A program made the position numbers and the translations under genes. A model generated the notes under the pieces. The model did not search any database, was not told where the DNA came from, and was given only the letters and a program-made list of their open reading frames with translations. A DNA stretch of 64,000 nt. Origin: Candidatus Woesearchaeota archaeon (GTDB lineage: Archaea > Nanobdellota > Nanobdellia > SCGC-AAA011-G17 > ARS1403). Location: assembly GCA_018302705.1 (NCBI GenBank), contig JAGVZI010000020.1, positions 1,081 through 65,080 of the forward strand. Reading direction: 5' to 3'. Of the stretch, positions 32,434 to 51,726 are shown one piece after another (the first letter of the stretch is position 1; each line of letters opens with the position of its first letter).

Positions 32434-33657
32434 TCATATTCCCAGGCTGCCCTCTAAGGTTTTCTTGAGCTCGTCGACAGAACTATTTGGTATTGCAAGC
32501 GAAATCTCTCTGGTTCTTCCATATCTTCCCTTGCTGATAACCCTTGCATTAATTATTCCGAACATGTCAAGCTCGGCGATAATATCGCTTACTCTTCTCT
32601 GTGTTAGGGGTTTAAGCCCGCATAATTTGCACTTGTCCTTATACACATCATAAGCATCTCCAGTAAATGCTCTATCTTTCAAATCTAGATTAAATATACT
32701 GTACAAGACTATCTGCCCCTGCTTTGGCTGTGTCTTTACAATATCAACTACCCTGTCTCTTTCAATCTTCTCCTCTGCTTCATCCAAAAATTTTATCGTG
32801 ACTTTCGATTTATTTTTCCTCTCAGCTACCTCTCCAGCAACCCTTATTAATTCTAAAGCCCTTCTCGCATCACCATGCTCCCTTGCAGCATATGCAGCGC
32901 ATTTTTCAATCACTCCCTCTTCTATAACCTCTTTCTTGAAGGCAAGCTGCACCCTTTCTTTTAATATATCTTGCAACTGAACCGCGTTATAAGGCGGGAA
33001 TACCAGCTCTTCCTCGCTCAAGCTGCTCTTAACCCTAGGATCTAAATTATCAGCAAACACAAGATCATTGCTAATGCCTATAAAAGAAATCTCGGCTTTT
33101 TTCAATTCACTATTTATTCTGGTTAAATTATACAAGATTCCATCCCCCATCTTATGCACCAATTGATCAATCTCATCCAATATAAGAACAATCATCTTTT
33201 CATCTTCGTCAATTTTCTCAAGGAATACTTTATAGATTTCATCAGTCGGCAATCCTGTAGCAGGGACCTTGGCGCCAAAACTATTGGCAAGTTGAGCAAG
33301 TAATCTATACTCTGTATCCGCAACCCTTTTCATCTTGCAATTCAAATAAACAATTTGCAAGTTTATATTCTTCTTCCTGGCAGTTTTCATCAGCTGGTCC
33401 GCAACATACTGGCTAACAACTGTCTTGCCGGTTCCAGTCCTTCCATAAAGAAATATGTTGCTTGGCTTCTCCATCCTTAAAGCAGGCGCAAGTATCCCTG
33501 CAATCTGCTGAATCTGCTCATCCCTATGCGGTATAGTATCCGGAGTATAATTTCCTTGTAATGCTTTTTTATTGACAAAAAGTGGGTCTTTCCTCATATA
33601 ATTCTCAAAAAATCCGCTTAATTGCTTAGGTCTGCTTCCCATAAATTCTGAAAACAC
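32434..33657 (-). CDS. cdc6: Orc1/Cdc6 replication initiator
   Basis: AAA+ Walker A LYGRTGTGKT, C-terminal winged helix, 407 aa. Confidence 0.9.
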   Translation of the reverse strand: MFSEFMGSRPKQLSGFFENYMRKDPLFVNKKALQGNYTPDTIPHRDEQIQQIAGILAPALRMEKPSNIFLYGRTGTGKTVVSQYVADQLMKTARKKNINLQIVYLNCKMKRVADTEYRLLAQLANSFGAKVPATGLPTDEIYKVFLEKIDEDEKMIVLILDEIDQLVHKMGDGILYNLTRINSELKKAEISFIGISNDLVFADNLDPRVKSSLSEEELVFPPYNAVQLQDILKERVQLAFKKEVIEEGVIEKCAAYAAREHGDARRALELIRVAGEVAERKNKSKVTIKFLDEAEEKIERDRVVDIVKTQPKQGQIVLYSIFNLDLKDRAFTGDAYDVYKDKCKLCGLKPLTQRRVSDIIAELDMFGIINARVISKGRYGRTREISLAIPNSSVDELKKTLEGSLGI

Positions 33658-34187
33658 AACTTATATTTAAACAATTCTCCAAAAGAAGTCAGACCCACAC
33701 CTTTATTGCACATGCAACCTTCTTTGCGATTATTCTCGAGGTTGGCATATATCATTACTAAGCAGATGAAACCATCTTAGCTAAACAACTCATAAGTTAT
33801 AACACTGTAAAATATATATTAAATAAAATATAATAAAAGATATATATTATCTAAAACGGAAAACCTTAAAAATAAAATAAAAAATAGCGTCGATAAACCA
33901 TTTCTAAAATAAACTATTCTAATATAAATATAATTAAAACATTCTAGCAAAAACACAATTGTTAAATCAAACTAGTCCAAAATCAAATTTCCTCAGGAGG
34001 AACCCCAAAAAACACAAATAATAAGGCTTAAAATCAAGGAATTTTAGCAATAATCTCCATCGGCAATTGGGGTGTAGGGGTAACTATTATTTAACCCCCA
34101 TCTAACAAAAAGACAATAAAATCTAATTTCCATAACAATAATTACAAATAAGAAAAATTTATAAACAATCCTTAATTCTCATCACCA
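33658..34187. other. Candidate replication origin (oriC) adjacent to orc1/cdc6
   Basis: A 530-bp non-coding AT-rich stretch with a strongly AT-rich putative unwinding element (33800-33960). It contains a perfect palindrome TTCCTCAGGAGGAA followed by CCCC (33989-34006), and inverted G-strings (GGGGTGTAGGGG ... ACCCCC) at 34067-34100. Its position upstream of cdc6-DP1-DP2 matches Pyrococcus. Confidence 0.55.
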
Positions 34188-34451
34188 ATGCCAGAAGAAG
34201 ATAAAAAATACTCTAAGCAGTTACTAGGGAAAACAGTTGTAAGTAAGACAGGAAAGCGCTTCGGAGAAGTTGGTGATATTATATTTGAAACTCGCACAGG
34301 AGAATTAATCCAGATACTTCTTAAAAATCCAACAACGTACACAAGAGATTTAGAGCTGGAATCCACTAAAAATGGCGAGCTCCTTATTCCATTCTCAGCG
34401 GTCATAGCCATGGGAGATTTTGTTGTTGTGGCAGAAGAAGACATTATTTAA
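34188..34451 (+). CDS. PRC-barrel domain protein
   Basis: 87 aa, LLGKTVVSKTGKRFGEVGDIIFETRTGELIQILL. Confidence 0.5.
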   Translation: MPEEDKKYSKQLLGKTVVSKTGKRFGEVGDIIFETRTGELIQILLKNPTTYTRDLELESTKNGELLIPFSAVIAMGDFVVVAEEDII

Positions 34452-34545
34452 AAAATAAAAATCAATAAATTTTAAAACCTTATTTTCTATAATATTTAAC
34501 GATAGCTTTAAAATATAACTATAAAAATATAAGCTTCTAAAAAAC

Positions 34546-36426
34546 ATGCTAAACTTCAAAACAACAGCAGACCTGCAGATATCTAAAAAAATAGCAGAGC
34601 AGATCATCGGCCAGGATCAAGGTCTGCAATTAATTAAAAAAGCAGCCCAGCACCGTCGTCATGTGCTTTTAATAGGTCACTCAGGGACAGGAAAATCCCT
34701 TTTAGGTCAAGCCTTAGCAGAACTGCTTCCAACAAAAGGAGAATTGCAAGATATTCTCTGCTATCCAAATGAAAAAGACCCGAATAATCCAATAATAAAA
34801 ACATTCCCGGCAGAAGAAGGGGAAAAGACAATAGTCAAATTAAGAAACAGTCTGGAAAACAGCTTATCATCAAGGCGCTTTTATTTGCTAATTTTAGGCT
34901 CAACTTTTTTATTCTTCCTCGGCTATTTTTTATGGTCTGCATTTAAAACATCTCCCTATGGTCCGATAGCAATTGTCCAAGGGCTTTCAACAGTTATTTG
35001 GATTCTCTTCATCGGCTTCTTGTTATTGTCAAGAGCGCCAGGAATGTTAAAAACACTAACAGGTTTAGCAATGGTGCCAAAGCCATTAATAACGCATAAG
35101 AAAGACGACCCAGCGCCATTTATCGAAGCTACGGGTGCACATTCAGGAGCATTACTCGGCGATATACTTCACGACCCCTTGCAGTCTGGGGGTCTAGGCA
35201 CTCCCCCTCATGAAAGAATTGTGCCGGGAATGATCCACAGGGCTAACGGCGGGGTTTTATTTATTGATGAAATCGCAACACTATCCCCAAAATCCCAGCA
35301 AGAATTATTAACTGTTTTGCAAGAAAAAAAATATCCGATAACAGGGCAGTCAGAGCATTCATCTGGAGCAATGACCCGGACCCAGCCGGTCCCGTCTGAT
35401 TTTGTTTTAGTGGCAGCAGGCAATGAAGAAACAATAGCTAAAATGCATCCAGCCCTCCGTTCTAGAATCCGCGGTTATGGTTATGAGATCCATATAAATC
35501 ATCACATGGATGATAACTTAGAAAATCAATTAAAAATTGCGCAATTCATCGCTCAAGAAGTTATCAAAGACGGCAAGATTCCGCATTTTTCAAATGCAGC
35601 AGCAGAGGAGATAATTAATGAAGCAAAGCGCAGGTCAGGCACTTCAGGAAAATTAACGCTGCATTTGCGCGAGCTAGGCGGCTTAGTAAGGGCAGCAGGG
35701 GATTTAGCAAAAGAAGAAGGAAAAGGAATAACAGAAAGAACTCATGTAATCAGGGCAAAATTATTAGCTCGCCCCTTAGAGCAGCAATTGGCAGATAAAT
35801 ACATTGAGGAAAAGAAAAAATATGAAGTAATAATCACTAAAGGAAAGATCATTGGCAGAGTAAATGGGTTGGCAGTGATAGGCACAGAAACCTCGTTATC
35901 AGGAATTGTTCTTCCAATAGAATCAGAAATAACCCCCGGAGGCTCTCGAGGGACAGAGATTGTAGCAACAGGTCAGCTGGGGAAAATCGCAAAAGAGGCA
36001 GTCAAAAATGTTTCTGCAATTATCTTGAAGTATTTTGGCAAGGACTTAAAAGAAAAGCACGATATCTTTGTTCAATTTTTATATACTTACACAGGAGTAG
36101 AAGGGGATTCAGCATCAATAGCAGTAGCAACAGCAATAGTCTCAGCCTTCACAAAAGCCCCAGTAAAGCAAGATTATGCAATGACAGGTTCTTTATCAGT
36201 ACGTGGAGAAGTTCTGGCAGTTGGAGGAGTAACCCAAAAAGCAGAAGCAGCAATCGGAGCAGGCATCACTAATCTAATAATTCCAAAAGCAAATCTTAAT
36301 GATGTTATCTTGTCAGAGGAAAATAGAAAGAAAATAAAAATCATTCCAGTAGAAAGGATTGAAGAGGTTTTAAAAGAAGCATTGGACTGGAAAGGAAAAG
36401 AAAATATCTTGAAGAAATTAAAGTAA
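34546..36426 (+). CDS. lonB: Archaeal membrane-bound Lon protease (LonB)
   Basis: Walker A GHSGTGKS, a TM insertion inside the AAA+ domain, Ser-Lys dyad region GDSASIA. Confidence 0.9.
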
Positions 36427-36804: not shown

Positions 36805-38469
36805 ATGAAGACGCAAATAATTAATTTATTAAAAAAACATACAAAATTAAAAGAGGTAATTCTAGAAATCCCCCCCTCTCCAGAGCTAGGCGATTATGCA
36901 TTTCCCTGCTTTCAGTTAGCAAAGAAAGAAAAGAAAAACCCAGCAGAAATAGCAGCAAATTTAGCAGCAAAAATTAAACTAATAAAAGGGGTAGAAAAAG
37001 TTCAGCCAACAGGCCCCTACTTAAACTTCTTCCTCGACAAGAGCATTAACTCAGAATTTATTTTATCATCTATTTTAAAGCCAAAAAAGCCCAAGAGAGG
37101 TAAAAATAAAAAGAAAATTGTGATAGAGTCTCCAGGACCAAACACAAACAAACCCTTGCACCTCGGCCATCTAAGAAACATGGTTTTAGGAATCTCAATC
37201 AAAAATCTCCAGGAAGCAGCCGGAAATAAGGCAATTCTCGTTGACATTATCAATGACCGCGGGATTCATATAGCAAAATCAGTACTTGCATACAGCTTGT
37301 ATGGCAATAACAAAAAGCCGGATAAAAAGCCAGACCACTTCATCGGGGATTTCTATGTTTTATTCTCAAAAAAAGCAGCAGAAAATCCAGAGCTGGAAAA
37401 TGAAGCCCATAAGCTGCTGCAGAAATATGAGGCAAAAGACAAAGCAACTCTCTCTTTATTTAAAAGGATGAATGTATGGGCAATCCAAGGCTTTAATCAA
37501 ACCTACAAGAGGGTTGGTATTAAAATTCAGAAAGCATATTTGGAAAGCCAGAATTATGAAAGGGGGAGGGAAATCGTCCTTAATGGCTTGAAGAAAGGGG
37601 TATTTCAAAAAAACAAAGAAGGAAGTATCATAGTAAATCTAGAAGGAGAAGGCCTAGGTGAGAAAGTCCTTCTAAGGGCAGACGGCACCTCAATATACAT
37701 TACTCAGGATATTTACATAGCAATTAAGCGTTATAATGATTTTCACATGGACAAGATGCTTTACATCGTCGGCTCAGAGCAGATCTATCATTTCAAAGTA
37801 CTATTCAAAACACTGGAATTGCTGGGCTATAAGTTCGCAAGAAATTATTTCCACCTGCCTTACGGCATGGTTTATCTTCCCGAAGGAAAGATAAAGTCGA
37901 GGGAGGGGAAAATTGTCGACGCTGATTCTCTTCTTGATCAAATGCACACCCTAGCTGAAAAAGAAATCCGGAAGCGCTATAAAACTCTTTCAAAAAAGGA
38001 AATACAAAAAAGGTCAGAAATAATTGCCCAATCAGCAATAAAATTCTTCCTCTTAAAATATGATCCATTAAAAGATTTCACATTCTTTCCAGAGAAATCA
38101 ATCTCTTTCGAGGGAGACACGGGCCCATATATTCAGTATACATCCGCAAGGGCATCCTCAATACTAAGAAAGGCAAGAACATTCAAGCCAGCATTTAATT
38201 TCACAGAAGAGGTTGAGCAGAAAATAATAAATCACCTCTCGAGATTTCAAGAAACAGTAGGAGAGGCAGCAGGAAAATACTCCCCACATTTAATTGCCCA
38301 TTATTCCCTGGATCTAGCCCATCTATTCAATGAATTTTATCACAAGTATCCTGTCTTGACTGCAGAAAAAGCAATTAAAGAATCAAGGTTAACATTAGTA
38401 AAGGCAACAAATAACATCCTCAAGGCGTCTCTCGAATTGATGGGGATTAAGCCACTAGAAAAGATGTAA
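36805..38469 (+). CDS. argS: Arginyl-tRNA synthetase
   Basis: HIGH motif (PLHLGHLRN), DALR-type anticodon-binding C-terminus, 554 aa. Confidence 0.85.
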   Translation: MKTQIINLLKKHTKLKEVILEIPPSPELGDYAFPCFQLAKKEKKNPAEIAANLAAKIKLIKGVEKVQPTGPYLNFFLDKSINSEFILSSILKPKKPKRGKNKKKIVIESPGPNTNKPLHLGHLRNMVLGISIKNLQEAAGNKAILVDIINDRGIHIAKSVLAYSLYGNNKKPDKKPDHFIGDFYVLFSKKAAENPELENEAHKLLQKYEAKDKATLSLFKRMNVWAIQGFNQTYKRVGIKIQKAYLESQNYERGREIVLNGLKKGVFQKNKEGSIIVNLEGEGLGEKVLLRADGTSIYITQDIYIAIKRYNDFHMDKMLYIVGSEQIYHFKVLFKTLELLGYKFARNYFHLPYGMVYLPEGKIKSREGKIVDADSLLDQMHTLAEKEIRKRYKTLSKKEIQKRSEIIAQSAIKFFLLKYDPLKDFTFFPEKSISFEGDTGPYIQYTSARASSILRKARTFKPAFNFTEEVEQKIINHLSRFQETVGEAAGKYSPHLIAHYSLDLAHLFNEFYHKYPVLTAEKAIKESRLTLVKATNNILKASLELMGIKPLEKM

Positions 38470-39144: not shown

Positions 39145-39254
39145 TTTTTCACACTCCTATTATTTTTTATATTTTATTAAACTAGAGTCAACTAGCCATA
39201 TTTATAAAATTTGTGGTTCCAAGCCCCACAAACCCAAAATTCTGCATTTGGCTA

Positions 39255-39345
39255 TTATTTTAAACAAACCAACAAACAATTCAACACAACTTCAACACTT
39301 AAACACATAAAAATATATAAAGTTCAACACATAACTTTAAAACTT
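39255..39345. promoter_or_regulatory. Reiterated TTCAACAC heptamer/octamer array flanking a TATA-like box
   Basis: Four perfect TTCAACAC copies (39270, 39281, 39313, 39334), plus a degenerate copy and AAATATATAAAG between them. Confidence 0.45.
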
Positions 39346-39372
39346 CAACACATCCGCTACTACTTGAAAAAA

Positions 39373-39942
39373 ATGAATCCAGATGAAATATTCAAGGAAA
39401 ACGTAATTAATTCTTTTAAAAAAGCCCGTAAAGACATGCTAGAGCTACAAAATTCACTGGTTTCACTAAAACAAGAGATTGACCAATTAAGAGCCAATTT
39501 AGAGCCTAAAAGTTCCACAGGAAATGAAGGGGTCTTCAACAAACAAACAAACCAACAAACAAACAAACAATTAAACAAACAAACAATTATTCAACAATCA
39601 AACACACTATCAAAGCTAAACGAGGACCTCGAAGCCCATTTTAATACCCTCACAAAGCAGGAGTTCCTGGTTTTCCTCTCACTTTACCAGTTAGAAGAAG
39701 AGTTAAGCACAGTTAAGTTCTCAGATCTAGCCAACCATTTAAACCTCTCAGAAAGCTCTATCCGTGGCTATATCAACCGTTTAATCCAAAAAGGCTCTCC
39801 AATTCTCAGAAAAAGAGTCAATAACAAGGTAATTAACCTCTCACTTTCATCGGATTTTCGTAATTTAAACCTAAAAAAGCGCCTCACAGACATCTATTAT
39901 CAATCAGATGCCTCTCAGAAACGGCTTTTTGATAGGTATTAA
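39373..39942 (+). CDS. Coiled-coil + C-terminal winged-helix protein (island paralog A)
   Basis: Start at MNPDEIFKEN. A coiled coil, then the NKQTNQQTNKQLNKQT low-complexity region, then wHTH (LTKQEFLVFLSLYQLEEE...SIRGYINRLIQKGSPILRK). Paralogous to 40209..40814. Confidence 0.55.
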   Translation: MNPDEIFKENVINSFKKARKDMLELQNSLVSLKQEIDQLRANLEPKSSTGNEGVFNKQTNQQTNKQLNKQTIIQQSNTLSKLNEDLEAHFNTLTKQEFLVFLSLYQLEEELSTVKFSDLANHLNLSESSIRGYINRLIQKGSPILRKRVNNKVINLSLSSDFRNLNLKKRLTDIYYQSDASQKRLFDRY

Positions 39943-40208
39943 TCCTTTATAGCTACGTCCACTATCCCCCCTCACTCATATTCTCTTTATTTTTCTCTCC
40001 CCCTCTCATTAATCAGTTTTTTAGATAATCCGATTTTGAAATATTTTGGAAGTATTTTGAAATATATTGGAGCATGCAATTACTCTTTTTTCCGAAAAGG
40101 GTCATCCGTCTTCGTCCGTAGTGTCCGTAGGAACATCCTACAACATCCTACGACACTTTAAAGTATGAAGAAAAATTTATAAATAAAAGGGTATTTCACA
40201 GATACAAG

Positions 40209-40814
40209 ATGCTTAAATGGTTGTTTAAAAAACATTTTAAGGAAGAGTTAAATTCTCATTTTGACAAATTGCATTTAAACTTATCTAGGGCATTTCTGAA
40301 CATCAAGGATGATATAAATAGCATCCACAAGCATCTGAATGAAAAGAGTTCAAAACTATATGAGGTCGAAAAAAGATTAATCGCTCTAGAACACAGGTTG
40401 GAGTATTCTTCAGAACAGGGGTTGGGGAAAGGAAGGATTGCACAAATAGCGCAAAGAGGAGAGATTGAACTGGAGGATGAAAGTCAAGGTGAGATCTCAT
40501 TAATTGAGCATTCTGGTTTGACAGAAACCCAAAAAATAATTCTAGTGGCAATTTACGAGCTTGAAAAGCAGCACAACAGCCCGATATCTTTTAAGTCTCT
40601 TGCAACCTTTCTTTATCCAGGGAAAAATTATAGCTCAATAAGGACAACCATCTCAGATTACCTAGACATCCTGGCAACCTACGGTTTTGTTAAAAAAGAG
40701 AAGGTGAAAAGGGAAACCATTACAATCACCACAAAAAAGGGCAAAGAATTAGCTAAAGAAGTATTAAAACAGAAAAAACAAAGGGAAAGAAGAAAAGTAA
40801 CAGAAGAGATTTAA
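40209..40814 (+). CDS. Coiled-coil + C-terminal winged-helix protein (island paralog B)
   Basis: LIALEHRLEY coiled coil, then wHTH (TETQKIILVAIYELEKQHNSPISFKSLATFL...DYLDILATYGFVKKEK) and a basic tail. Confidence 0.55.
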   Translation: MLKWLFKKHFKEELNSHFDKLHLNLSRAFLNIKDDINSIHKHLNEKSSKLYEVEKRLIALEHRLEYSSEQGLGKGRIAQIAQRGEIELEDESQGEISLIEHSGLTETQKIILVAIYELEKQHNSPISFKSLATFLYPGKNYSSIRTTISDYLDILATYGFVKKEKVKRETITITTKKGKELAKEVLKQKKQRERRKVTEEI

Positions 40815-40959
40815 ATTAATTATCAAAGATTAATAAAATCTATTAAATGTTTTAATCAAAGACTAAAACATTTTATCTTAAAACCTCCTCTCAAAAACTA
40901 AAATATTTAAGAATTTAGCCACAACAAGCTATATAAACCCGCTTTACCCAAAAAGAGCT

Positions 40960-41169
40960 ATGAAAACAGAAAAAAGTATCAAAAAGGTTGGATCAATATG
41001 GGGATTAATAACATTAGTCCTCGCTAAATTAGTAGCCCCGATGCCTACAACAAACAGATGGCTATATAAAATGGGTGAATCTACTAGCAACCTGAGAAAT
41101 TATGGGTTCTCGAACTTAGATTTGAACAGATTAGATAGGTCATTATTGTACTCTTTAACAAGTTATTAA
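40960..41169 (+). CDS. Small hypothetical protein
   Basis: 69-aa ORF preceded 22 nt upstream by a TATA/BRE-like motif shared with the integrase gene. Confidence 0.3.
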   Translation: MKTEKSIKKVGSIWGLITLVLAKLVAPMPTTNRWLYKMGESTSNLRNYGFSNLDLNRLDRSLLYSLTSY

Positions 41170-41369
41170 AAACCTGGTTTTTAGCAAGTTTATCCATAAT
41201 ATCCATGATTAGCGGTTTTTAGATTAAATTAAAAATTTTAACAGCAGAATATTACGAGCAAAACTTAAAATTTTTTAGAAAATCATTCTTATTCTAGCAC
41301 AAATACCCATCCAATTTGAAATAAGTTTCAGCCAAAAAGTTTAAAAATAGTAAAAGTAAAGAAAAAAGG

Positions 41370-41735
41370 ATGAAACATTCAATTGAAGATATAGGAACCC
41401 TAGTTGAAATGGGTATAAACAAGCAACAAGCCTTAGCTACTCTGGCTTTATTTCCAGATTTAGATGATGCCATGCTTGTAATTAACGCATATAGGCATCC
41501 GCCAGAAGGATTTAAAAGATATGTTGGAGATTATTCTAATTATTTAGCTACATTAAGGGATGCTTCTAGGGGGGTTACAGGAGACAGAACCGCTCACGAT
41601 CAAGAAGTAGCAGAAAGAACAGCTATGGTCCCAGAAGAGGTATTAACTAGATCCGCCTATAGGAAGGATAAGCCATCTAGCTCAAGCCATTATTGGGAAC
41701 ACGAAACTACAAGGCAACTTGATTTAGGTTCTTAA
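41370..41735 (+). CDS. Hypothetical protein
   Basis: 121-aa ORF within the island. Confidence 0.35.
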   Translation: MKHSIEDIGTLVEMGINKQQALATLALFPDLDDAMLVINAYRHPPEGFKRYVGDYSNYLATLRDASRGVTGDRTAHDQEVAERTAMVPEEVLTRSAYRKDKPSSSSHYWEHETTRQLDLGS

Positions 41736-41935
41736 AAGTTTCTATCTTTTCTTATTTATTTTGTTTTAACTAAAATTACCCTAAAAATGTAACACTCTTC
41801 CTAATCTATTGAATAAAAGGTTACAAAACATGCCAAAAACATAATATATCTACCAACTATAACCTAAATTTAGAATTTTGCCACTACAAGCCTTATACAC
41901 AAACTATATAAACTAATTCGTCTAATGCTAATTAG

Positions 41936-42784
41936 ATGAAAAATGAAGAGGTGTTGGAAAAAGTTGAAAGAGAGTTGAAATTATTAGGTCATAGTCCAAG
42001 AACTATAAATTCCTACTTAACTTATCTAAATGAATTATTCAAATTTACTGGGAAAATACACTCAAGAATCCTGTTCGAAGATATTAAGAAATTCTTAGAG
42101 CATTTAAGCATCGAAAAAAACTACTCTGGATCTAGTTTAAACCTTGCAAGGTCTGCAATCTCTTTCTATTATGAAAAAATGTTGGAAAAATACACAGTTA
42201 GCAAGATAAGAGTTAAGAAAGTGGGCAAAAAACTCCCAAATGTGCTAACAAAACAAGAAGTAAAAAGAATAATCGATGCAGCTTCCAATTTAAGGGATAA
42301 ATTAATCATTCAAATGATGTATTCTTGCGGCCTAAGAGTTTCTGAAGCTGTAAACATAAAGTTAGAAGATTTAGATACCTCTAGACTAACAGGAATAGTA
42401 AGGTCTGGGAAAGGAAATAAAGATAGGGTAATACAATTAAATCCTCCTTTAGTAAACAGTATAGAATCTTATGTTAAAACTAAAAAATTACCTTCTATGT
42501 TCTTGTTTTCTAAATCAAATGGAACCCCCTATACTATTAGGACCTTTCAGATAATAATAAAAAAATTAGCGGAAAAGGCGGGAATAACAAAAAGAGTTCA
42601 TTCTCACATATTTAGACACGCATTTGGTACCCATTTAGTTGAAAAGGGGATAGATATAGTAAGAGTTCAAGGGATGATGGGGCACTCAAATTTAGAAACT
42701 ACAAAATTATACATAAACTTATCAAAAGAACAGTTTAAAGGCGTTGGAAACCTTTTAGATGATTTGGATAAAGATGAAAACTGA
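41936..42784 (+). CDS. Tyrosine recombinase / integrase (XerC/D-like)
   Basis: N-terminal SAM-like core-binding domain. Catalytic box RVHSHIFRHAFGTHLVEKGIDIVRVQGMMGHSNLETTKLYINL, which includes RHxF...H and the catalytic Tyr. Confidence 0.85.
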   Translation: MKNEEVLEKVERELKLLGHSPRTINSYLTYLNELFKFTGKIHSRILFEDIKKFLEHLSIEKNYSGSSLNLARSAISFYYEKMLEKYTVSKIRVKKVGKKLPNVLTKQEVKRIIDAASNLRDKLIIQMMYSCGLRVSEAVNIKLEDLDTSRLTGIVRSGKGNKDRVIQLNPPLVNSIESYVKTKKLPSMFLFSKSNGTPYTIRTFQIIIKKLAEKAGITKRVHSHIFRHAFGTHLVEKGIDIVRVQGMMGHSNLETTKLYINLSKEQFKGVGNLLDDLDKDEN

Positions 42785-43289
42785 AAATATTATTTGTGCA
42801 TATGAATATGAAATTATAGATTGGATTAAAGAAAATTATAAGTTAATAGGTTATGATAAGCTATTAGAAGAAAATAAAAATAAAATCCCAGATTTAGTTA
42901 TGTTAAAAAATGGTAAAAAGGCAAACGTAGAAGTTGAAATTTACTCTAGTTCATTTGTTAAACATAAACATAATCCTAGTAAAATAGATGAAGTTCTTTG
43001 CTTAATCAATGATTCTAAACTGTCTATAAAAACGATTAAAATCAAACAACTTAAATTATGGTATCATTTACAAGGAAATGAGCTAGTTGACTTTTTTAAA
43101 GCCCTGCCAGATACCAATTTAATAGACCACAGATGCAATCAAACAATTTATCATCACCAAAAGGAATGGCTCAATCTTTCCGAAAAAGAGGAAAGAAGAA
43201 TTAGAGAAAATTTGGAAGCACAATCAAGATTTCTAAATACTGGAGATCCAAAGGAATTGAAAGAAAAAGCGGGTGATGTTTTTGACTAA
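42759..43289 (+). CDS. Hypothetical protein, possible PD-(D/E)xK nuclease fold
   Basis: IPDLVMLKNGKKANVEVEIYSS resembles a D...(E/D)xK-type core. Weak evidence. Confidence 0.3.
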   Translation: MIWIKMKTENIICAYEYEIIDWIKENYKLIGYDKLLEENKNKIPDLVMLKNGKKANVEVEIYSSSFVKHKHNPSKIDEVLCLINDSKLSIKTIKIKQLKLWYHLQGNELVDFFKALPDTNLIDHRCNQTIYHHQKEWLNLSEKEERRIRENLEAQSRFLNTGDPKELKEKAGDVFD

Positions 43290-43734
43290 AGCAATGAATA
43301 TTTCATCAGAAACTAGTAGGTGTAAAAGATGCAATAAGATAAAGAAATTCCATGCAAAAGGGTTGTGTAATGTTTGTTATAAGAATTATGGAACAAGATT
43401 AATCATCTGTAAACAATGTAAAGAAAAAAAGAATCATATGGCAAAGGGCTATTGTGGAAATTGTTATAGGAAACGATTCTATTATGATAACACTAAAGCA
43501 AGCAACTTAAGGAGGTATTATGGAGATCTTTCTTTAGAACGATGGAAGGAGATCACTAAAGAATGTGTTTCTTGTAGTTTTAACAAAATTGTTGATGTAC
43601 ATCATATTGATGAAAATAATAAAAATAATTCTAAGAGTAATTTAATTGGTTTATGTCCAAATTGTCATAAATTAATCCATATGGGCCAATATAGGCAGGA
43701 GATAATTAGCAATCTAATACGCCAAAGGATATAA
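43273..43734 (+). CDS. HNH endonuclease with N-terminal Zn-ribbon repeats
   Basis: Three CxxC...CxxC knuckles, then VDVHHIDENNKNN...LCPNCHKLIH (the HNH motif). Confidence 0.8.
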   Translation: MMFLTKAMNISSETSRCKRCNKIKKFHAKGLCNVCYKNYGTRLIICKQCKEKKNHMAKGYCGNCYRKRFYYDNTKASNLRRYYGDLSLERWKEITKECVSCSFNKIVDVHHIDENNKNNSKSNLIGLCPNCHKLIHMGQYRQEIISNLIRQRI

Positions 43735-43791
43735 CTTTCAAACTCCGGGACAAAAAACATTGAAAGCTATGGGCACTAACAGACAAAATAA

Positions 43792-43929
43792 CGCCGAACA
43801 TTGATTATAGACGCTTATGATTTAAGAGTTATCCAAGAATTGTTAGCTCATGAAAATTTAGAAACTACACAAATTTACACAAAAGTTTCAACAAAAACAT
43901 TGAAAGGGGTAAAAAGCCCAAGAGATTAA
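43792..43929 (+). pseudogene. Integrase C-terminal fragment (45 aa, no start codon)
   Basis: [45 protein letters not shown] is homologous to the C-terminus of the integrase at 41936..42784 (NLETTKLYINLSKEQFKGV). A stop lies immediately upstream. Confidence 0.6.
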
Positions 43930-43940
43930 AAATGAAAGAA

Positions 43941-44117
43941 TTATCTATTTCTCCAATTTACATCATGCTTAGTATAAATGTTTGGAACATTTCTTCTTAA
44001 CCATATCATAAATGCTATTATCCCTATAATTAAAAATACAACCAATGCAAATAGAATCCACATTCTAAACTCGGTGATATTATTTCCAAAAAGACTATCA
44101 CTAAAAAACGCTCTCAT
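43941..44117 (-). CDS. Small single-TM protein
   Basis: MRAFFSDSLFGNNITEFRMWILFALVVFLIIGIIAFMIWLRRNVPNIYTKHDVNWRNR. More protein-like than the overlapping plus ORF 43978..44193. Confidence 0.3.
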   Translation of the reverse strand: MRAFFSDSLFGNNITEFRMWILFALVVFLIIGIIAFMIWLRRNVPNIYTKHDVNWRNR

Positions 44118-44324
44118 TAAAATTACTCCAATTAAGATACTTCCACCAGCAGAGATTATAGGATGCCTTCTACAAAACCAATTTAATTTTTGAAAAGTAG
44201 ATGGTTTCCTGAAATGGGTTTTATTATGGAATTTTCTTCTATGTCTTCCATGCCCTCTAACCCTACTAAATCATATGTTTCCAAAGCTTAAAAATTAACT
44301 ATACCTCGTTAATGTTACAATACA

Positions 44325-44400
44325 GGGGCATTAGCATAGCTTTATAAATAATTTTGGAAGATTAAATCCTTAGCATAGTTTACTTAGCATAGTTTAAGTA
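44325..44400. promoter_or_regulatory. Three direct repeats TTAGCATAGYTT upstream of the Zn-ribbon gene
   Basis: ATTAGCATAGCTTT (44330), TTAGCATAGTTTAC (44370), TTAGCATAGTTTAAG (44384). ATG at 44409. Confidence 0.4.
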
Positions 44401-44408
44401 GGTATAAA

Positions 44409-44744
44409 ATGAAAGAATTTAATCCAGATGATTACGAAAACACTGGCAGAAGAAATTCTGGAAGAGCGGGTAGAAGAAAGCCAAGCAGAAGAAATTCTGA
44501 TCGAAAGGATTTCAGGCCTAGGTTCTCAGAAGATCGGTCAATGCATAAAGCAACATGTGATTCATGCGGCGAAAGCTGTGAAGTTCCTTTCAAACCAACC
44601 AAAGGCAAGCCAATTTACTGTGATGCATGTTTTAAAAAGAATAAGAATTCCGGGCCCGAGAACAGGACTAATCAATCTTCAAGGGAGTTAGCTCAAATAA
44701 ATGAAAAACTCGACAGGATATTAGAGGCATTAAAGGTAAATTAA
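44409..44744 (+). CDS. Arg/Ser-rich basic protein with C4 zinc ribbon
   Basis: N-terminal GRRNSGRAGRRKPSRRNSDRK. CDSCGESCEV...CDACF zinc ribbon. C-terminal helix. Confidence 0.45.
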   Translation: MKEFNPDDYENTGRRNSGRAGRRKPSRRNSDRKDFRPRFSEDRSMHKATCDSCGESCEVPFKPTKGKPIYCDACFKKNKNSGPENRTNQSSRELAQINEKLDRILEALKVN

Positions 44745-44791
44745 ATTTTGTATAAAAACCCTTAAAAACCGTTTATTCTTAAATATTTCAG

Positions 44792-45457
44792 GTGATAAGG
44801 AGTCCAAAAACGAAACCGATCAAATTATCTTCAAGCAGTATAAACCTATTCTTAGAATGTCCAAGATGCTTCTATCTGCAAATTGTTAAAGGAATTAAAC
44901 GACCTCAAGGACCTTTCCCCTCTTTGCCTTCAGGAATGGATAAAATATTGAAAGAGCATTTTGACAGGTTTATGGAAAAAGATGAATTGCCTCCAGAGAT
45001 AAAAGGAAAATGCGAAGGCTGCAAATTATTTTTTGATAAAAAACTGCTTGAAATCTGGAGAAATAACAGGAAAGGAATTGAATATACTGATCCTAAAACA
45101 GGAATCTTATTGCATGGAGCTATTGACAATCTTTTAGTTAAAGATGGAAAATTAATTGTCCTAGATTATAAAACAAGGGGCTTTCCAGTTAAAGAAGATA
45201 CTCATGAGGATTATCAATCTCAAATGGATCTTTATAACTTTTTGTTAAATAAAAATGGATATGAAACAGAAAATTATACTTATTTATTATTTTATTATCC
45301 TAAAGAAGTCTTAGAAACTGGAGAAGTTATTTTTGATACAGAACTTGTTAAAATGAAGATCAATGTAAAAGATGGAGAAAAAGCTTTTAATGATGCTGTT
45401 GCTTTGATTAAAGGAGAAGAGCCAGAAGAAAAGTGTGAGTGGTGTGAGGGGAAGTGA
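44792..45457 (+). CDS. Cas4-like / RecB-family PD-(D/E)xK nuclease with 4-Cys cluster (standalone)
   Basis: N-terminal CPRCFY and C-terminal CEWCEG cysteine pairs, in the Cas4/DUF83 1+3 / 2+2 Fe-S arrangement. GAIDNL...VLDYK (D..DxK) core, QxxxY (YQSQMDLY) motif. Confidence 0.6.
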   Translation: MIRSPKTKPIKLSSSSINLFLECPRCFYLQIVKGIKRPQGPFPSLPSGMDKILKEHFDRFMEKDELPPEIKGKCEGCKLFFDKKLLEIWRNNRKGIEYTDPKTGILLHGAIDNLLVKDGKLIVLDYKTRGFPVKEDTHEDYQSQMDLYNFLLNKNGYETENYTYLLFYYPKEVLETGEVIFDTELVKMKINVKDGEKAFNDAVALIKGEEPEEKCEWCEGK

Positions 45458-45532
45458 GATAGACATCAAAACAAATCTTCATGAACTAAAAGAAAAAAAA
45501 TAAGAAAATTCTGCTCACAAACTTATTATAAG

Positions 45533-45844
45533 TTAAAAAATTTTCGTTTTCTCAATCTCTTCTTCGGGATTAAGAGGTTTATAGTCATTAAAATGTTTAA
45601 TGCAAAATTCAATTAATTTATTTGCTAATATCAAGTTTTTATCCACTTCATCCCTTCTTGTTTTACTATCAGCCTTAAACAAATAAATATCTAATAATTC
45701 ATGGTCGTCTGTATAAATCTCCCAATTATTTCTATTCAGAAGAGCTAAAGTTTGTCCATCAGAATTAACATAATCAATATAGTGAGTTTTGTTTTTATGT
45801 TTAACTTCAAATGTTTTTTGAATCGTTGTTTGTTCAATTTTCAT
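45533..45844 (-). CDS. Hypothetical protein
   Basis: 103-aa ORF on the opposite strand within the island. Confidence 0.35.
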   Translation of the reverse strand: MKIEQTTIQKTFEVKHKNKTHYIDYVNSDGQTLALLNRNNWEIYTDDHELLDIYLFKADSKTRRDEVDKNLILANKLIEFCIKHFNDYKPLNPEEEIEKTKIF

Positions 45845-45874
45845 AAAATAAATAAACCAAGGGGATATTTAAAG

Positions 45875-46759
45875 ATGATCATAAAAACACTTAAAAACAA
45901 GCATCTTTATTCAATTATCAAGATGGAATACAAGCCCTACTGTAAGAAAATTGATAGATCAATGATGGATTGGGGGTTCACAATCCCTAAAAATTATGTA
46001 AAAGATTTTGAAGCCGAAATCAGCCTAGATCCTGGAAAATCACGTAGAATCGAGATCCTTTGGGAGAAGAAGAGGTATCCTGCAAAGTTATGTAATGTTA
46101 AAAGGAAGGATTATCCAAAGGTCTATCAATTGAGATGGGATAATAGTCAAGGATTCCTCAATAAATTAAGAAAGACATTTATACAAAGCTATATTGTCTT
46201 CAAAAGCCAAAAGGAATTATTTGATACTCAAAAAAGAGAAGGGCATTTCAGAACAAAAGAGCATCAAGAAGCAATTGTTTTTTCTCCTGTAAATTCTGAA
46301 TTAATACACGCAGAGACTTTCATTAGGGTTGAAAATGAATGGAACTCATTATTTAGGAGGTTAACAGAAGAGAACGTATTTGGATGGATTTTTGATAAAA
46401 ATAAAAAATATTTAATCTCTAGAAGTACAAACTGGATTAAAGCTAGTGAATTTAAGGAACATATTAATGCTACAAATGTAATTTATTATTTAGCAAATAC
46501 AAAAAAAGGATTGATATATGTTGGGAAAGCCGGGGTTTTAGGAAAGAGAGTTAAACCAAAGAAAAGCCACCAAGACATGCCCGACGATTGGGATCTTTTT
46601 AAATATGATATAATAAAACCAGAATATTGTAATCTTTTAGGGAGAATAGAAGATCACACAATTAGGACTCTTGCCGCAATACTAGAGAATGATAAAGGTT
46701 ATCCAACATTGAAGCTCCAAGGGTATAAATTAGTAAATAAAAATTGGAAAAAATTATAA
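45875..46759 (+). CDS. GIY-YIG nuclease with N-terminal putative DNA-recognition domain
   Basis: C-terminal VIYYLANTKKGLIYVGKAG...R...E(RIEDH)...N(VNKNW) matches GIY-(x9)-YVG, Arg, Glu, Asn of GIY-YIG. The start is set at the internal ATG after the GGGGAT SD-like site; track ORF 45752..46759 overlaps the minus-strand gene. Confidence 0.55.
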   Translation: MIIKTLKNKHLYSIIKMEYKPYCKKIDRSMMDWGFTIPKNYVKDFEAEISLDPGKSRRIEILWEKKRYPAKLCNVKRKDYPKVYQLRWDNSQGFLNKLRKTFIQSYIVFKSQKELFDTQKREGHFRTKEHQEAIVFSPVNSELIHAETFIRVENEWNSLFRRLTEENVFGWIFDKNKKYLISRSTNWIKASEFKEHINATNVIYYLANTKKGLIYVGKAGVLGKRVKPKKSHQDMPDDWDLFKYDIIKPEYCNLLGRIEDHTIRTLAAILENDKGYPTLKLQGYKLVNKNWKKL

Positions 46760-47023
46760 GTAATATATGATAATGAAAAGAAAAACAGAGATTAAGTCGG
46801 CAGATCAAAAAGATAATGGAAAATTTATTTCGTTCTGGGAAGAAATGAAGAAAAAAAGAAAAGAGCAAGGAAAATAGTTTTTTTAAAGTCAGAGCTGCTC
46901 AGAACCTCAACACTCTTCTGCGTTAATCTCTCTCCAGGCCTGTCAAACCAAGGCAAGTCTTTGATTTTCATTAAGAAAAGAAAAATAAATGAACGCTTTT
47001 TTAATATCATATCCTAAATATTT

Positions 47024-47230
47024 TTATTCCTTATTGAATCCAAGCATCCTCATTATTCTTCGTTCTAAGTTTTCCTCGGGGTTTTCTGGGGCATAAATTC
47101 TAATTCGCTCATGACCATCTACTTCCACCCCATGTACTTGCCTTTTTGTAGAGCCTCTCTCGCTGATTACAACGCCAATATGCCTTCCATCCGGCAAAGT
47201 ATACTCATAAGCATATTCCATGTCGCCCAA
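47024..47230 (-). CDS. Small hypothetical protein
   Basis: 68 aa, MGDMEYAYEYTLPDGRHIGVVISERGSTKRQVHGVEVDGHERIRIY. Confidence 0.3.
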   Translation of the reverse strand: MGDMEYAYEYTLPDGRHIGVVISERGSTKRQVHGVEVDGHERIRIYAPENPEENLERRIMRMLGFNKE

Positions 47231-47317
47231 CCACAGGCTTCTTATATATAAAACTATCTTGGATTATTATCTTAGTTTGTCAAAAATTTTTTAAATCTGT
47301 ATGTTTATAATCATGGC

Positions 47318-47653
47318 ATGCATAAACCATTGGAGTTCATTTTGGAAGCAACATCCATGAACACAGGGAAAGTATCAGAAGGGAGGTTGCTAATCGCTGT
47401 TAGAGTAACATCTGTAAAATCCTTGAACCCAGAATGCTGTGATGGGTACATAGAAAGTCTAAGAAAACTTTATGAGTTAAGGGCGATAAACCCCCCTGAA
47501 TCATTTACCCCCAGATATGGGAGCAGGTTAAAAGTTTATGTTAGTATCACTCAAAGCGCAAACCTTCCAAAGGGGATATTCTATCCCCGCAAGATGGAGC
47601 TCCTGGATGAAAGTGGGAGGATCCTGTCTGTCTATGAAGAATGCTCGTTATAA
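47318..47653 (+). CDS. Hypothetical protein
   Basis: 111 aa. Confidence 0.3.
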   Translation: MHKPLEFILEATSMNTGKVSEGRLLIAVRVTSVKSLNPECCDGYIESLRKLYELRAINPPESFTPRYGSRLKVYVSITQSANLPKGIFYPRKMELLDESGRILSVYEECSL

Positions 47654-47702
47654 AAACTTAAAAAGATAATATTTTGAAATTTTTCTAAAAAGAAAAAAAT
47701 GG

Positions 47703-47897
47703 CTATTTCCTAGCCATATTTATTGCCCATAATGCAGCCAAACCTACCAAAACATAGACAATTCTCTCTAGCCAGGAAACCGATCCGAGAATAAGGTTCA
47801 CCAAATTAAAGTCGAGAGCGCCAATCAATCCCCAGTTTATTCCACCAATAATTACTAAGACTAAAGCAATCCAATCCCAAACACTTTTTTCGGCCAT
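47703..47897 (-). CDS. Small two-TM membrane protein
   Basis: 64 aa, hydrophobic. Confidence 0.35.
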   Translation of the reverse strand: MAEKSVWDWIALVLVIIGGINWGLIGALDFNLVNLILGSVSWLERIVYVLVGLAALWAINMARK

Positions 47898-47935
47898 TTT
47901 TTCTTCACCTCCTTTTTTTTATTTAAGTCTAAAAT

Positions 47936-48337
47936 TTAAATGAGCTCCTTAATTACCAATATAATCAGTAGCACCCAGATCAAAATCGACAGCCAGGCTT
48001 TTCTTGCAATGTTTTTTTCTTTCAATAGTTTTCTGCCTAGTTGCAATACCTCTTTAGAGTAAACAGCCATGCCCGCAGCACTAATCAAAACAACGAATAA
48101 GATAACTCCAAAAATCTGTACAATACTAATCTCTTGCAATAGCTGATAAAAAACAATACCCGCAAGTACTAAAGAAACAACAACGAAAGCTTTAGGATTC
48201 TTCCATACAACCTCGATAATATCAATCCATCTCTCGGGGTTCTTCAAAATAACCAGAATCTTTATCAAACTAACAACCACTACGACCCAAGCAAAGATTT
48301 CTATCGGAGTCATTCTAGCTAAGATATAGGGGTTCAA
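47936..48337 (-). CDS. Membrane protein (4 TM)
   Basis: 133 aa, hydrophobic. Confidence 0.4.
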   Translation of the reverse strand: MNPYILARMTPIEIFAWVVVVVSLIKILVILKNPERWIDIIEVVWKNPKAFVVVSLVLAGIVFYQLLQEISIVQIFGVILFVVLISAAGMAVYSKEVLQLGRKLLKEKNIARKAWLSILIWVLLIILVIKELI

Positions 48338-48429
48338 GCACTATATAAATATTCCTACACCCTGCCTGCTCACTCGTTTACTTTACATACACATCAAACA
48401 AGGAGAACAAAAGGATATAGTTGGAATGA

Positions 48430-48615
48430 GCAGGAGAGAAATCCGGGATAGAAAAAGAAATTTGTCCCAATGCTTTACGACATTCATTTGCAGTGCATCT
48501 ATCAGAAGATGGAAGGGACATAAGATCCATACAAAGATTACCGGGTTACACAGATTTATCGACGACGCATAGACCTACCTACAGAGGGCAGCTAAAGAAA
48601 GCGAAGATCCTCTAG
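48430..48615 (+). pseudogene. Integrase C-terminal fragment (61 codons, no start codon)
   Basis: ...NALRHSFAVHLSEDGRDIRSIQRLPGYTDLSTTHRPTYRGQLKKAKIL* has the RHxFA..HL...GxDxxxIQ..LGH...TT..Y box II of tyrosine recombinases. TGA lies immediately upstream and there is no N-terminal part. Confidence 0.6.
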
Positions 48616-48841
48616 AAGCCTAGGATTATCTTAAAAATTCGACGAAAATATTTAATCTACCGACGATAAATTTATATACTTCCTAGTCTTCTCAATATCA
48701 ATCCCAATTAACTTCGGGAAAGAGAGGTGAGAGAATGGTTGTTGGCATTTGCCGGTAACCTTCTTTCTAGTTTCAGATGACATACCTGCCACGTGCGCAC
48801 AGCATTTATAAACAAAAAGTAAGTCTTTATCCTCGATAAAA

Positions 48842-49105
48842 ATGAAAAGTCTAAGTAAAGAACATAAAAGGAAATTAAGCATATCTCAAAGAAAGAGGTT
48901 TTCTTTAAATAGATTTCCTGAAGAAGTTAAAAAGAAAATAAGCGAGGCTAAAAAAATTAGGTGTTATGAAGAAACAGAAGAGGGGAGAATACAATATTTC
49001 AAAAAATTGGGTTATCAAACTTTAATTAATTGGGAGAAAGAACTAAAAAAACCAGAAATTGTTTTAGAAAAAATAAACAATTTTAAATATAATCTTCATC
49101 CATAA
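48842..49105 (+). CDS. Small basic protein
   Basis: 87 aa, Lys/Arg-rich. Confidence 0.3.
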   Translation: MKSLSKEHKRKLSISQRKRFSLNRFPEEVKKKISEAKKIRCYEETEEGRIQYFKKLGYQTLINWEKELKKPEIVLEKINNFKYNLHP

Positions 49106-49402
49106 AAAAGGAGGTGAACTAAAATGGGCAAGGTTTTAGTCAAGAACGTTATAAAAAGAAAAGCCGGATATCTATACTATTGATTTTAATCTGCGGGTTA
49201 AATCGGGAAAGTGGACGGCAAAGGTAATCTAAAACTGCTTAGGTAGTTTGGACCTTAGATGTCTGCGAAGCAAAGATGTCCCGAGGCGGAAGAAGAAAGA
49301 AAGCCTCAAAAAGGAGAAGGTGACTTCTTCTTTTTTTCTTTTTGTTTCAATTTTCTAGCTAAATATTTATATACAAGTTATTCTCTGCTAATTAGCTAAA
49401 AG

Positions 49403-50445: not shown

Positions 50446-51726
50446 ATGCTAGATATAAGGTTTTTAAAAGAAAATCCGAAATTAGTTAAGGAAAACATAA
50501 GGAAAAAATATCAGGAAGGCAAATTAGTTCTCGTCGATAAAATAATAGAAAATTACTCAAGGGTCTTGAAGTTAAAGAAAGAAGCAGAAGAGTTGCGCCA
50601 TAGAAGGAACAAGCTTTCAATGGAGATAAACGCTTTAGTTAAAAGAAAAGTTGATGCATCTCCAATTATAAAAGAAGTAAAAGGAATCCCTGGAAAAATA
50701 AAAGACCTTGAAGATAAGAAGCACGAGCTTGAGTTGGAAATGAACCTCCGGCTCATACAAATTCCAAACATAATGCATCCGTCCGTGCCTAAAGGAAAGG
50801 ATCATCTGCAGAACAAAGTGATAAAGAAGCAAGGCAAGGTTCCAAAGTTTAATTTTCAAGTGAGAAACCATGTTGAGCTCGGCGAGCATCTCGGAATTTT
50901 GGATTTTGACTCCTCAGCAGAAACTTCTGGGAATGGATTCTATTATTTGAAAGGGAAATTAGCCCTGCTGAATCAGGCCCTGATTAGGTTCATTATTGAT
51001 TTCATGCAGTTAAAAAAGTACCAGTACATTGAAACCCCATTAATGATAAATAAAAAAGTGGCTGCAGCAGCAGGAGATTTAGACGCGTTCGAAAAAGCGC
51101 TATACAAGATTGAAGCAGAAGATCTGTATCTGGTTCCGACAGCAGAGCACTCATTATTGGGGATGCATTCAAATAAAACATTTTCAGATGAGGATCTTCC
51201 AAGAAAATATTTCTCATACTCAATGTGCTTCAGGAAAGAAATCGGAAGCCATGGAATAAATGAAAAAGGTTTGTGGAGAACTCATCAGTTCAATAAAGTT
51301 GAGCAGTTTATTTTTTGCAGGCCAGACGAGTCTTGGAAGATGTATGAGGAATTAAGAAAGAATACAGAGCAGATTTTTCAGAAATTAAAGCTACCTTATA
51401 GAATCCTGGAGTCGTGCTCAGGAGATTTAGGAAATTGGAAGGCAAAATCAGAAGATCTGGAAGTTTACAGGCCGACGACAAAGCAGTACGAGGAAGTTAC
51501 TTCATTAAGCAACTGCGCTGATTTCCAAGCAAGGGATTTGAATATAAAATTTGTTAACAAAAAAGGAGAGAAGCAGGTAGTGCACACATTAAACAACACG
51601 GCAATAGCAACATCTCGCGCTTTAGTCGCAATAATGGAAAGCTATCAGACAAAGAATGGAGAGATAAAAGTTCCGGCTGTGCTGCAGAAATATACGGGGT
51701 TCAAAGATATAGAAAAGCATAAATAA
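50446..51726 (+). CDS. serS: Seryl-tRNA synthetase
   Basis: N-terminal coiled-coil arm plus class II core; resembles seryl-tRNA synthetases. 426 aa. Confidence 0.85.
   Translation: MLDIRFLKENPKLVKENIRKKYQEGKLVLVDKIIENYSRVLKLKKEAEELRHRRNKLSMEINALVKRKVDASPIIKEVKGIPGKIKDLEDKKHELELEMNLRLIQIPNIMHPSVPKGKDHLQNKVIKKQGKVPKFNFQVRNHVELGEHLGILDFDSSAETSGNGFYYLKGKLALLNQALIRFIIDFMQLKKYQYIETPLMINKKVAAAAGDLDAFEKALYKIEAEDLYLVPTAEHSLLGMHSNKTFSDEDLPRKYFSYSMCFRKEIGSHGINEKGLWRTHQFNKVEQFIFCRPDESWKMYEELRKNTEQIFQKLKLPYRILESCSGDLGNWKAKSEDLEVYRPTTKQYEEVTSLSNCADFQARDLNIKFVNKKGEKQVVHTLNNTAIATSRALVAIMESYQTKNGEIKVPAVLQKYTGFKDIEKHK

Follow-up and report, generated by a model that had tools for sequence, protein, structure and literature searches.

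The Recombinase Locus and Its Orphan Gene Ends

The 64-kb stretch of DNA analysed here (the window) carries one intact tyrosine recombinase gene, int1 (41936..42784, forward strand), which encodes a 282-amino-acid protein of the XerA family, and two orphan gene ends on the same strand, fragment A (43801..43929) and fragment B (48430..48615). The gene content of the window is archaeal and includes the small subunit of PolD, Cdc6/Orc1, LonB, ArgRS, SerRS, and topoisomerase I. Rifle-type groundwater metagenomes are the source of its exact and near matches, which carry the annotation Candidatus Woesearchaeota. The window belongs to the chromosome of an archaeon of the Woesearchaeota (DPANN). Related metagenome contigs and loci used for comparison are numbered L001–L106.

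The int1 gene stands at the end of a gene order, ArgRS-o144-o56(-)-HTH-wH-small-small-recombinase (HTH, helix-turn-helix; wH, winged helix; (-), minus strand), that was kept in every related locus retrieved (among them L009, L011, L018, L021, L105, and L106). We refer to the last position in this order as the recombinase slot. In the window, ArgRS lies at 36805-38469, and the conserved module upstream of the slot (39211..41735, forward strand) consists of the HTH protein (39211-39942), the wH protein (40209-40814), o69 (40960-41169), and o121 (41370-41735). From the slot, a hypervariable island with defence-like genes and orphan genes extends to SerRS (50446-51726). The G+C fraction was 0.28–0.33 at 40–47 kb, compared with 0.36–0.42 in most of the remaining window.

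A tblastn search of the window with int1 as the query returned exactly two additional pieces, all other matches being at noise level. The first, at 43801-43911 (fragment A), aligned with int1 residues 234–270 (38% identity, E-value 3e-4), and the other, at 48433-48567 (fragment B), aligned with residues 212–256 (42% identity, E-value 2e-7). Both scored above the gathering threshold of Pfam PF00589 (Phage_integrase) and matched only the C-terminal end of this 172-position profile (fragment A, positions 140–170, 29.6 bits; fragment B, positions 117–164, 41.9 bits). The two integrase fragments proposed in the initial annotation are therefore real. Positions 41900-44400 of the window were 100% identical in six independent contigs, so the region around int1 and fragment A is not an assembly artefact.

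The aligned C-terminal region of int1 contains the RH, GH, and LY motifs. Fragment A retains 42 codons and fragment B about 61–85, and in a common alignment the start of fragment B falls 23 columns ahead of that of fragment A. It had been proposed that both pieces break at nearly the same position, within about eight residues of each other relative to an RHxF motif. The breakpoints are instead at least 23 codons apart, and fragment A contains no RHxF; the in-frame DNA upstream of it carries stop codons (H*QTK*RRT), and extending fragment A upstream into the RHxF region gave no significant similarity (p 0.09–0.3). A box II with the catalytic tyrosine had been assigned to both pieces and is present only in the first. 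Fragment A lacks RHxxR but keeps the conserved histidine and the nucleophile tyrosine. Fragment B keeps RH, but its histidine has been replaced by tyrosine (LPGY vs. LLGH in the family) and its nucleophile tyrosine by proline (TTHRPT vs. TTQ[IV]YT), and it has a two-codon deletion.

The homology of both pieces to int1, also part of the initial annotation, holds at the family level, but both are much closer to other XerA types (55–90% identity) than to int1 (38–42%). Each was 55–69% identical to another class of Xer-like proteins of about 270 amino acids. At least three deeply divergent types, which we call int1, intA, and int2, are relevant here; they are 37–42% identical to each other, and int1 orthologues are 62–89% identical. 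With the NCBIfam model NF040815 (XerA_Arch), int1, intA, int2, and the protein P0133 scored 231, 224, 235, and 241 bits, respectively (equivalog cutoff 220). The same four proteins scored 170–202 bits with the integron integrase model TIGR02249, under its cutoff of 265. Precomputed Pfam domains of all close relatives were PF13495, PF00589, and PF22823. In another Woesearchaeota metagenome-assembled genome, an XerA-like gene (L033:1511-2328) appears to be divided between two frames covering residues ~2–85 and ~92–274, which would mean either a pseudogene with a frameshift or an error in the sequence.

Fragment A Is the 3' End of an intA-Type Gene

Fragment A comprises the last 42 codons and the stop codon of an intA-type XerA gene and forms an open reading frame (ORF) with a TTG start. 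Against residues 229–270 of the full-length intA of L018 it was 90% identical in amino acid sequence and 86% in nucleotide sequence. The DNA homology begins at ~43809 and stops 4–7 nucleotides (nt) past the stop codon. As a protein query, fragment A recovered itself alone; the full-length gene (270 amino acids) was found in contigs L015, L017, and L018 with a DNA pattern derived from the fragment. Full-length intA occupies the recombinase slot in the sister Woesearchaeota lineages L018 and L026. The slot of L018 reads HTH-wH-..-intA-o103(-), and o103(-) lies directly 3' of intact intA in L016–L018.

Compared with three intact intA alleles, fragment A showed a nonsynonymous divergence (dN) of 0.02–0.04 and a saturated synonymous divergence (dS) of at least 1. 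This combination indicates that the sequence evolved almost entirely under selection at the protein level and hence that the truncation is recent. The NCBI record that carries the window sequence labels the 42-amino-acid ORF (P0121) as a tyrosine-type recombinase/integrase, an annotation that should be changed to a remnant.

A repeat shared by fragment A and the stretch upstream of it had been reported, and this was confirmed. The 14-nt sequence AAAAACATTGAAAG occurs at 43753..43766 and again at 43893-43906 inside the fragment, both on the forward strand, with a shuffle p of about 0.001.

A second intA-type remnant was observed in L026 (3925-4003). It is a decayed, frameshifted 3' end of at least 26 codons with three indels and lies ~1.6 kb downstream of the intact intA of L026, past three unrelated ORFs. 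It was 81% identical to fragment A and 74% identical to L026's own intA.

Fragment B Is a Decayed Relic of an int2-Family Gene

Fragment B represents the decayed last ~61–67 codons of an int2-family XerA gene. It was 55–67% identical to int2-family proteins from residue 209 onward, and weak DNA similarity suggests a possible backward extension to ~48376 (about residue 190). Since both the histidine and the tyrosine have been lost and an indel is present, this fragment is old. In L009 and L020, the same DUF378(-) gene is immediately followed by the intact counterpart, int2 (275 amino acids). The int2 family is a large and well-conserved DPANN family with 63–70% identity across Nanoarchaeota, Pacearchaeota, and Woesearchaeota, on contigs of up to 668 kb.

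In the window, fragment B lies in a lineage-specific block of 1.67 kb (46970..48639) together with o68(-), o111, DUF378 (47703-47897, minus strand), and TM133 (47936-48337, minus strand). This block stands in place of 155 nt in the sister genome L026. DNA synteny between the window and L026 is lost at 46969 and returns at 48640, 25 nt past the stop codon of fragment B. A further segment, 48736-49260, had no counterpart in L026. NUMOD3 is a DNA-binding motif of homing endonucleases, and an 87-amino-acid ORF just 3' of fragment B (48842-49105) contained a weak NUMOD3-like motif (Pfam E-value 0.03).

Recurrent Replacement of the Slot Recombinase

The slot proved multi-allelic, with all three recombinase types found in it. 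The window, L007, L009, L011, L105, and L106 carry an int1-type gene there, L018, L025, and L026 an intA-type gene, and L021–L023 an int2-family gene. The closest relative of the window that we found, L026 (WHD91 96%, Grx 87%, and o69 87% identical), has full-length intA in its slot. A clean swap was seen between L021 and L105, in which LonB (96%), ArgRS (82%), o213 (88%), and the downstream PD-(D/E)XK nuclease gene (94%) are closely similar but the recombinases are only 37% identical. Homology between these two loci returns 1–16 nt after the recombinase stop codon, at the promoter of the next gene. The genes concerned are L021:8001-8843 (int2-family) vs. L105:10001-10876 and L106:7722-8576 (both int1-type). 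The small ORF just upstream of the recombinase also diverges between L021 and L105 (51% identity).

Identities of int1 were discordant with those of host genes: L009 was 84% identical to the window in int1 and 46% in ArgRS, and L011 was 69% and 82% identical, respectively. With L007, homology was limited to 41736-42794, that is, to int1 and its upstream spacer. The upstream module is a mosaic as well; relative to L011 and L009, identities were 80% and 42% for the HTH protein, 37% and 46% for the wH protein, and 37% and 43% for o121.

The cargo downstream of the recombinase differs in each related locus. It included MazG/SLFN-helicase/RadC, Fic, ABC transporter, DndB, and DpnI genes, as well as type I restriction-modification, OLD-like, NYN, and HEPN/NTase genes. 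In several comparisons, junctions with alternative cargo lay 0–16 nt from the recombinase stop codons.

Strain-level polymorphism was observed in one groundwater population, in which L013 and L014 carry the same intA allele followed either by DpnI and further genes or by DndB-MazG-SLFN helicase. The cargo diverges exactly at the intA stop codon, and the contigs are broken there. These contigs start where fragment A starts, and a common breakpoint was considered. It was attributed to assembly, as ~128 nt, about one assembler k-mer, are shared before the sequences branch at that stop codon; contig L015 carries the gene at full length.

Tests for Att Sites and Split Integrases

The initial annotation had suggested that an attP site lies inside the integrase gene and that serial or nested integration split the gene, leaving the orphan ends. 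This was contradicted by several results in addition to the differing breakpoints. The three recombinase 3' ends, aligned as DNA, had no invariant stretch common to all three. An exact match between int1 and fragment A, the 14-nt AATTTAGAAACTAC, encodes the conserved NLETT motif; it is absent from fragment B, occurs in the intact intA of L018, and was found nowhere else in the window. Overall, the int1 3' end and fragment A were 75% identical over 57 nt, including this exact match (14–16 nt). A search for direct and inverted repeats at the island borders (36–52 kb) gave short, chance-level matches alone, as did the corresponding search in the intA-lineage loci. No int(N) remnant was found in the window with int1, intA, int2, and P0133 queries at relaxed E-values, and ARAGORN predicted no tRNA genes there. 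The other suggestion, that recombination between elements had left int(C) scars, holds insofar as a replacement or a deletion left each fragment behind, in an island prone to recombination; they do not mark a common site and are not copies of int1.

Replacement of the int1 3' end by an incoming element was also rejected. The match of the int1 C-terminus to its own orthologues is unbroken, and fragment A belongs to another gene lineage. Because the orthologues share this C-terminus while carrying different cargo, an incoming element was not its source.

L011 served as a positive control for integration into a gene end. In this sister genome, an 81-bp direct repeat of a PD-(D/E)XK gene 3' end (16845-16925 and 18146-18226; 96% identical) encloses a 1.2-kb insert that contains three small ORFs and no recombinase. 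The ancestral ending CEWCEGK, which the window also has, survives in the distal orphan copy. Such an arrangement is textbook att-type integration into a gene 3' end, presumably mobilised in trans. The int1/fragment A pair does not resemble such a duplication.

In Thermococcales, dif is not adjacent to xerA. The P. abyssi-type (Thermococcales) dif pattern matched the 64-kb window six times vs. 8.9 expected, and none of the matches fell at a junction.

Cargo and Neighbouring Genes

Two genes lie between int1 and fragment A. The first, o176 (42759..43289, forward strand), overlaps the end of int1. It had no Pfam or PHROG matches and was absent from L007, L009, L011, and L026. Its pattern IPDLVM...NVEVEIY (PD..EVE-like) is reminiscent of PD-(D/E)xK nucleases. 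The second, HNH153 (43273..43734, forward strand), encodes a predicted HNH endonuclease (PHROG 2255, E-value 7e-8; Pfam HNH, E-value 9e-4) and ends ~70 nt before fragment A; its 152-amino-acid form was found in a single context in 10 contigs. Together, o176 and the HNH gene would make a two-nuclease cargo unit. Close viral relatives of int1, intA, int2, o176, and HNH153 were not found in IMG/VR.

The cargo between the fragments (43941..46969) consists of o58(-), a treble-clef zinc-finger gene (44409-44744), a PD-(D/E)XK nuclease gene (44792-45457), o103(-), o294, and o36. The zinc-finger and PD-(D/E)XK genes were recognised by Pfam matches and are conserved in L011 and L026.

Outside the island, the Cdc6/Orc1 gene (32434-33657, minus strand) is located ~8 kb upstream of int1, and no clear repeats were found beside it (33600-34600). 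AACAAAC-rich direct repeats inside the HTH243 gene (39263-39612) encode a low-complexity linker rich in N, K, Q, and T. SerRS is a single 426-amino-acid ORF in the window and in L002. In contig L001 (18511-19824), gene calling gave two ORFs for seryl-tRNA synthetase (104 and 317 amino acids), probably because of an assembly or strain frameshift.

Discussion

The most probable explanation of these data is that fragments A and B are scars of the replacement and decay of XerA-type genes in a hypervariable island downstream of a conserved xerA locus. The data show what the fragments are, that intact counterparts occupy equivalent positions in relatives, that the slot gene has been replaced repeatedly, and that fragment A is recent and fragment B decayed; we infer the following order and mechanism for the individual events. 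The lineage would formerly have held an intA-type gene in the slot. DNA carrying int1, or int1-o176-HNH, may then have overwritten everything up to intA codon 228, leaving the last 42 codons of intA behind as the recent scar that is now fragment A. Fragment B is an older scar, left by an int2-family gene that would have stood next to DUF378, at the right edge of the 1.67-kb block, itself acquired separately; the 5' three quarters of this int2 gene may have given way to unrelated DNA that is now the TM133 gene. That only 3' ends are left could reflect incoming DNA that pairs with the conserved upstream genes, with the far junction falling anywhere in the redundant old gene. We think that the patterns of 3' ends and junctions are explained by conserved upstream homology combined with selection that keeps genes and promoters intact. 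A site-specific or nuclease-assisted process behind them is considered less likely.

Several observations weigh against this explanation. All three scars (fragment A, fragment B, and the L026 remnant) are 3' ends, which could hint at a directed process, and the L026 scar cannot be shown to be independent of fragment A. Junctions located 0–16 nt from stop codons would also be predicted by a site-specific mechanism. The AAAAACATTGAAAG repeat is not accounted for by this explanation. The locus is a mosaic gene by gene, so that the exact events cannot be reconstructed. Finally, the XerA inventory of this genome covers the 64-kb window alone, and a second intact XerA elsewhere is possible.

A more novel reading is that the slot is a genuinely multi-allelic, often exchanged XerA cassette in Woesearchaeota whose scars mark the right-hand junctions of swaps. 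The swaps, or the turnover of cargo from the recombinase stop codon onward, might then be driven by a specific mechanism such as homing-like conversion by HNH/o176 or XerA-dependent capture at a site next to the gene 3' end, and island dynamics would include the repeated substitution of a housekeeping-type recombinase by xenologues. We hold this to be rather unlikely. A particular homing-type event, in which the HNH nuclease, perhaps with o176, cuts intA and repair copies in int1-o176-HNH with the intA 3' end as the right homology arm, is improbable. It would fit the short distance (~70 nt) between the end of the HNH gene and the fragment A breakpoint, the confinement of o176-HNH to this lineage, the near absence of amino acid changes in fragment A, and the weak NUMOD3-like ORF that adjoins fragment B. 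However, the HNH gene shows no sign of mobility, being found in one context only, the neighbours of the L026 scar are genes for membrane and unknown proteins rather than nucleases, and the slot swaps between L021 and L105 took place without a nuclease. The lineages of the fragments contradict serial integration at an att site in the recombinase 3' end, which would make the orphan pieces attR-type duplicates. They come from lineages other than int1 and other than each other, the int1 3' end is native to orthologues with different cargo, and the exact match between int1 and fragment A corresponds to NLETT codons also present in the unlinked intA of L018 and missing in fragment B. Neither coincident breakpoints nor matching repeats at the island borders were found, and most related loci lack an orphan piece. 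The layout of int1 3' end, cargo, fragment A, cargo, and fragment B on one strand is nonetheless what serial integration would produce, as is alternative cargo that begins at the stop codon or within 10 nt of it, and L011 provides a true example in a sister genome. On balance, we judge integration of this kind to be quite improbable as the source of the fragments.

It is very improbable that the fragments have been kept for a function, either as a peptide of the Tyr helix and C-terminal helix that modulates XerA in trans or as regulatory or termination DNA. In favour of a function, the 42-codon ORF of fragment A is intact, begins with TTG, and has a very low dN, and the C-terminal helix of XerA is known to act in control (PMC3646895). 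Yet fragment B is without the key residues, the L026 counterpart is frameshifted, and the low dN of fragment A is explained by recent truncation. We give practically no credence to an origin of the fragments as Int(C) halves of a suicidal integrase of the SSV type. The likeness to the integrases of SSV, pTN3, and pT26-2 (PMC8371274, PMC7253208) is superficial and extends to an orphan C-terminal integrase piece in an archaeon. Suicidal integrases are PF16795 (Phage_integr_3) proteins whose Int(C) holds the whole catalytic domain (PMC8371274). The window genes belong to the XerA family (PF13495 and PF00589) and not to PF16795, no int(N) or tRNA attB was found in the window, and the retained pieces of 42–67 residues are the last 15–25% of the protein; the intact counterparts are unsplit in the chromosomes of relatives.

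Replacement and decay, the explanation preferred here, relate the locus to two known kinds of feature. Like integrase remnants in decaying or accreted islands and 'grounded' prophages, the fragments are truncated recombinase genes at the edges of acquired blocks in DNA of low G+C, the region is variable in gene content, and one remnant is recent and the other decayed. Unlike such remnants, the window genes are XerA-type, of the chromosome-resolvase family rather than classic phage integrases, tRNA and att repeats are lacking, and one remnant shares its slot with the intact xenologue that replaced it. The similarity to xenologous (in situ) gene displacement, which is known from variable hotspots between core genes, lies in recombinases of 37–42% identity at the same position between flanks that are 80–96% identical, and in tree discordance. 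It differs from the usual displacement in that a 3' scar remains from one imprecise swap, and in that the gene exchanged encodes a site-specific recombinase and lies beside a variable island.

Two further systems share some features with the locus. As in archaeal XerA/dif (PMC2958812) and in Xer-exploiting elements (IMEX), the recombinases pass the XerA_Arch cutoff and cargo follows right after the recombinase, but no Thermococcales-type dif-like site lies near any window junction. Integrons, including archaeal integrons (PMC9668308), likewise have a tyrosine recombinase beside a variable gene array. The proteins compared here, however, have 270–282 amino acids, with no room for the IntI-specific extra domain, and fall below the integron integrase cutoff; the window cargo has genes on both strands, some of them long, and no repeated hairpin (inverted-repeat) family was found in it.

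The fragments themselves are an ordinary, known kind of feature, and they reveal no new recombination mechanism. Their value is as direct physical evidence for the in-place replacement of XerA by distant xenologues at a conserved DPANN locus ~8 kb from cdc6, and as a sign that turnover is concentrated in the DNA downstream, a hotspot with defence-like cargo. The notable context, recurrent swapping of XerA xenologues in place in Woesearchaeota, may be of interest for work on archaeal Xer systems and DPANN genome plasticity.

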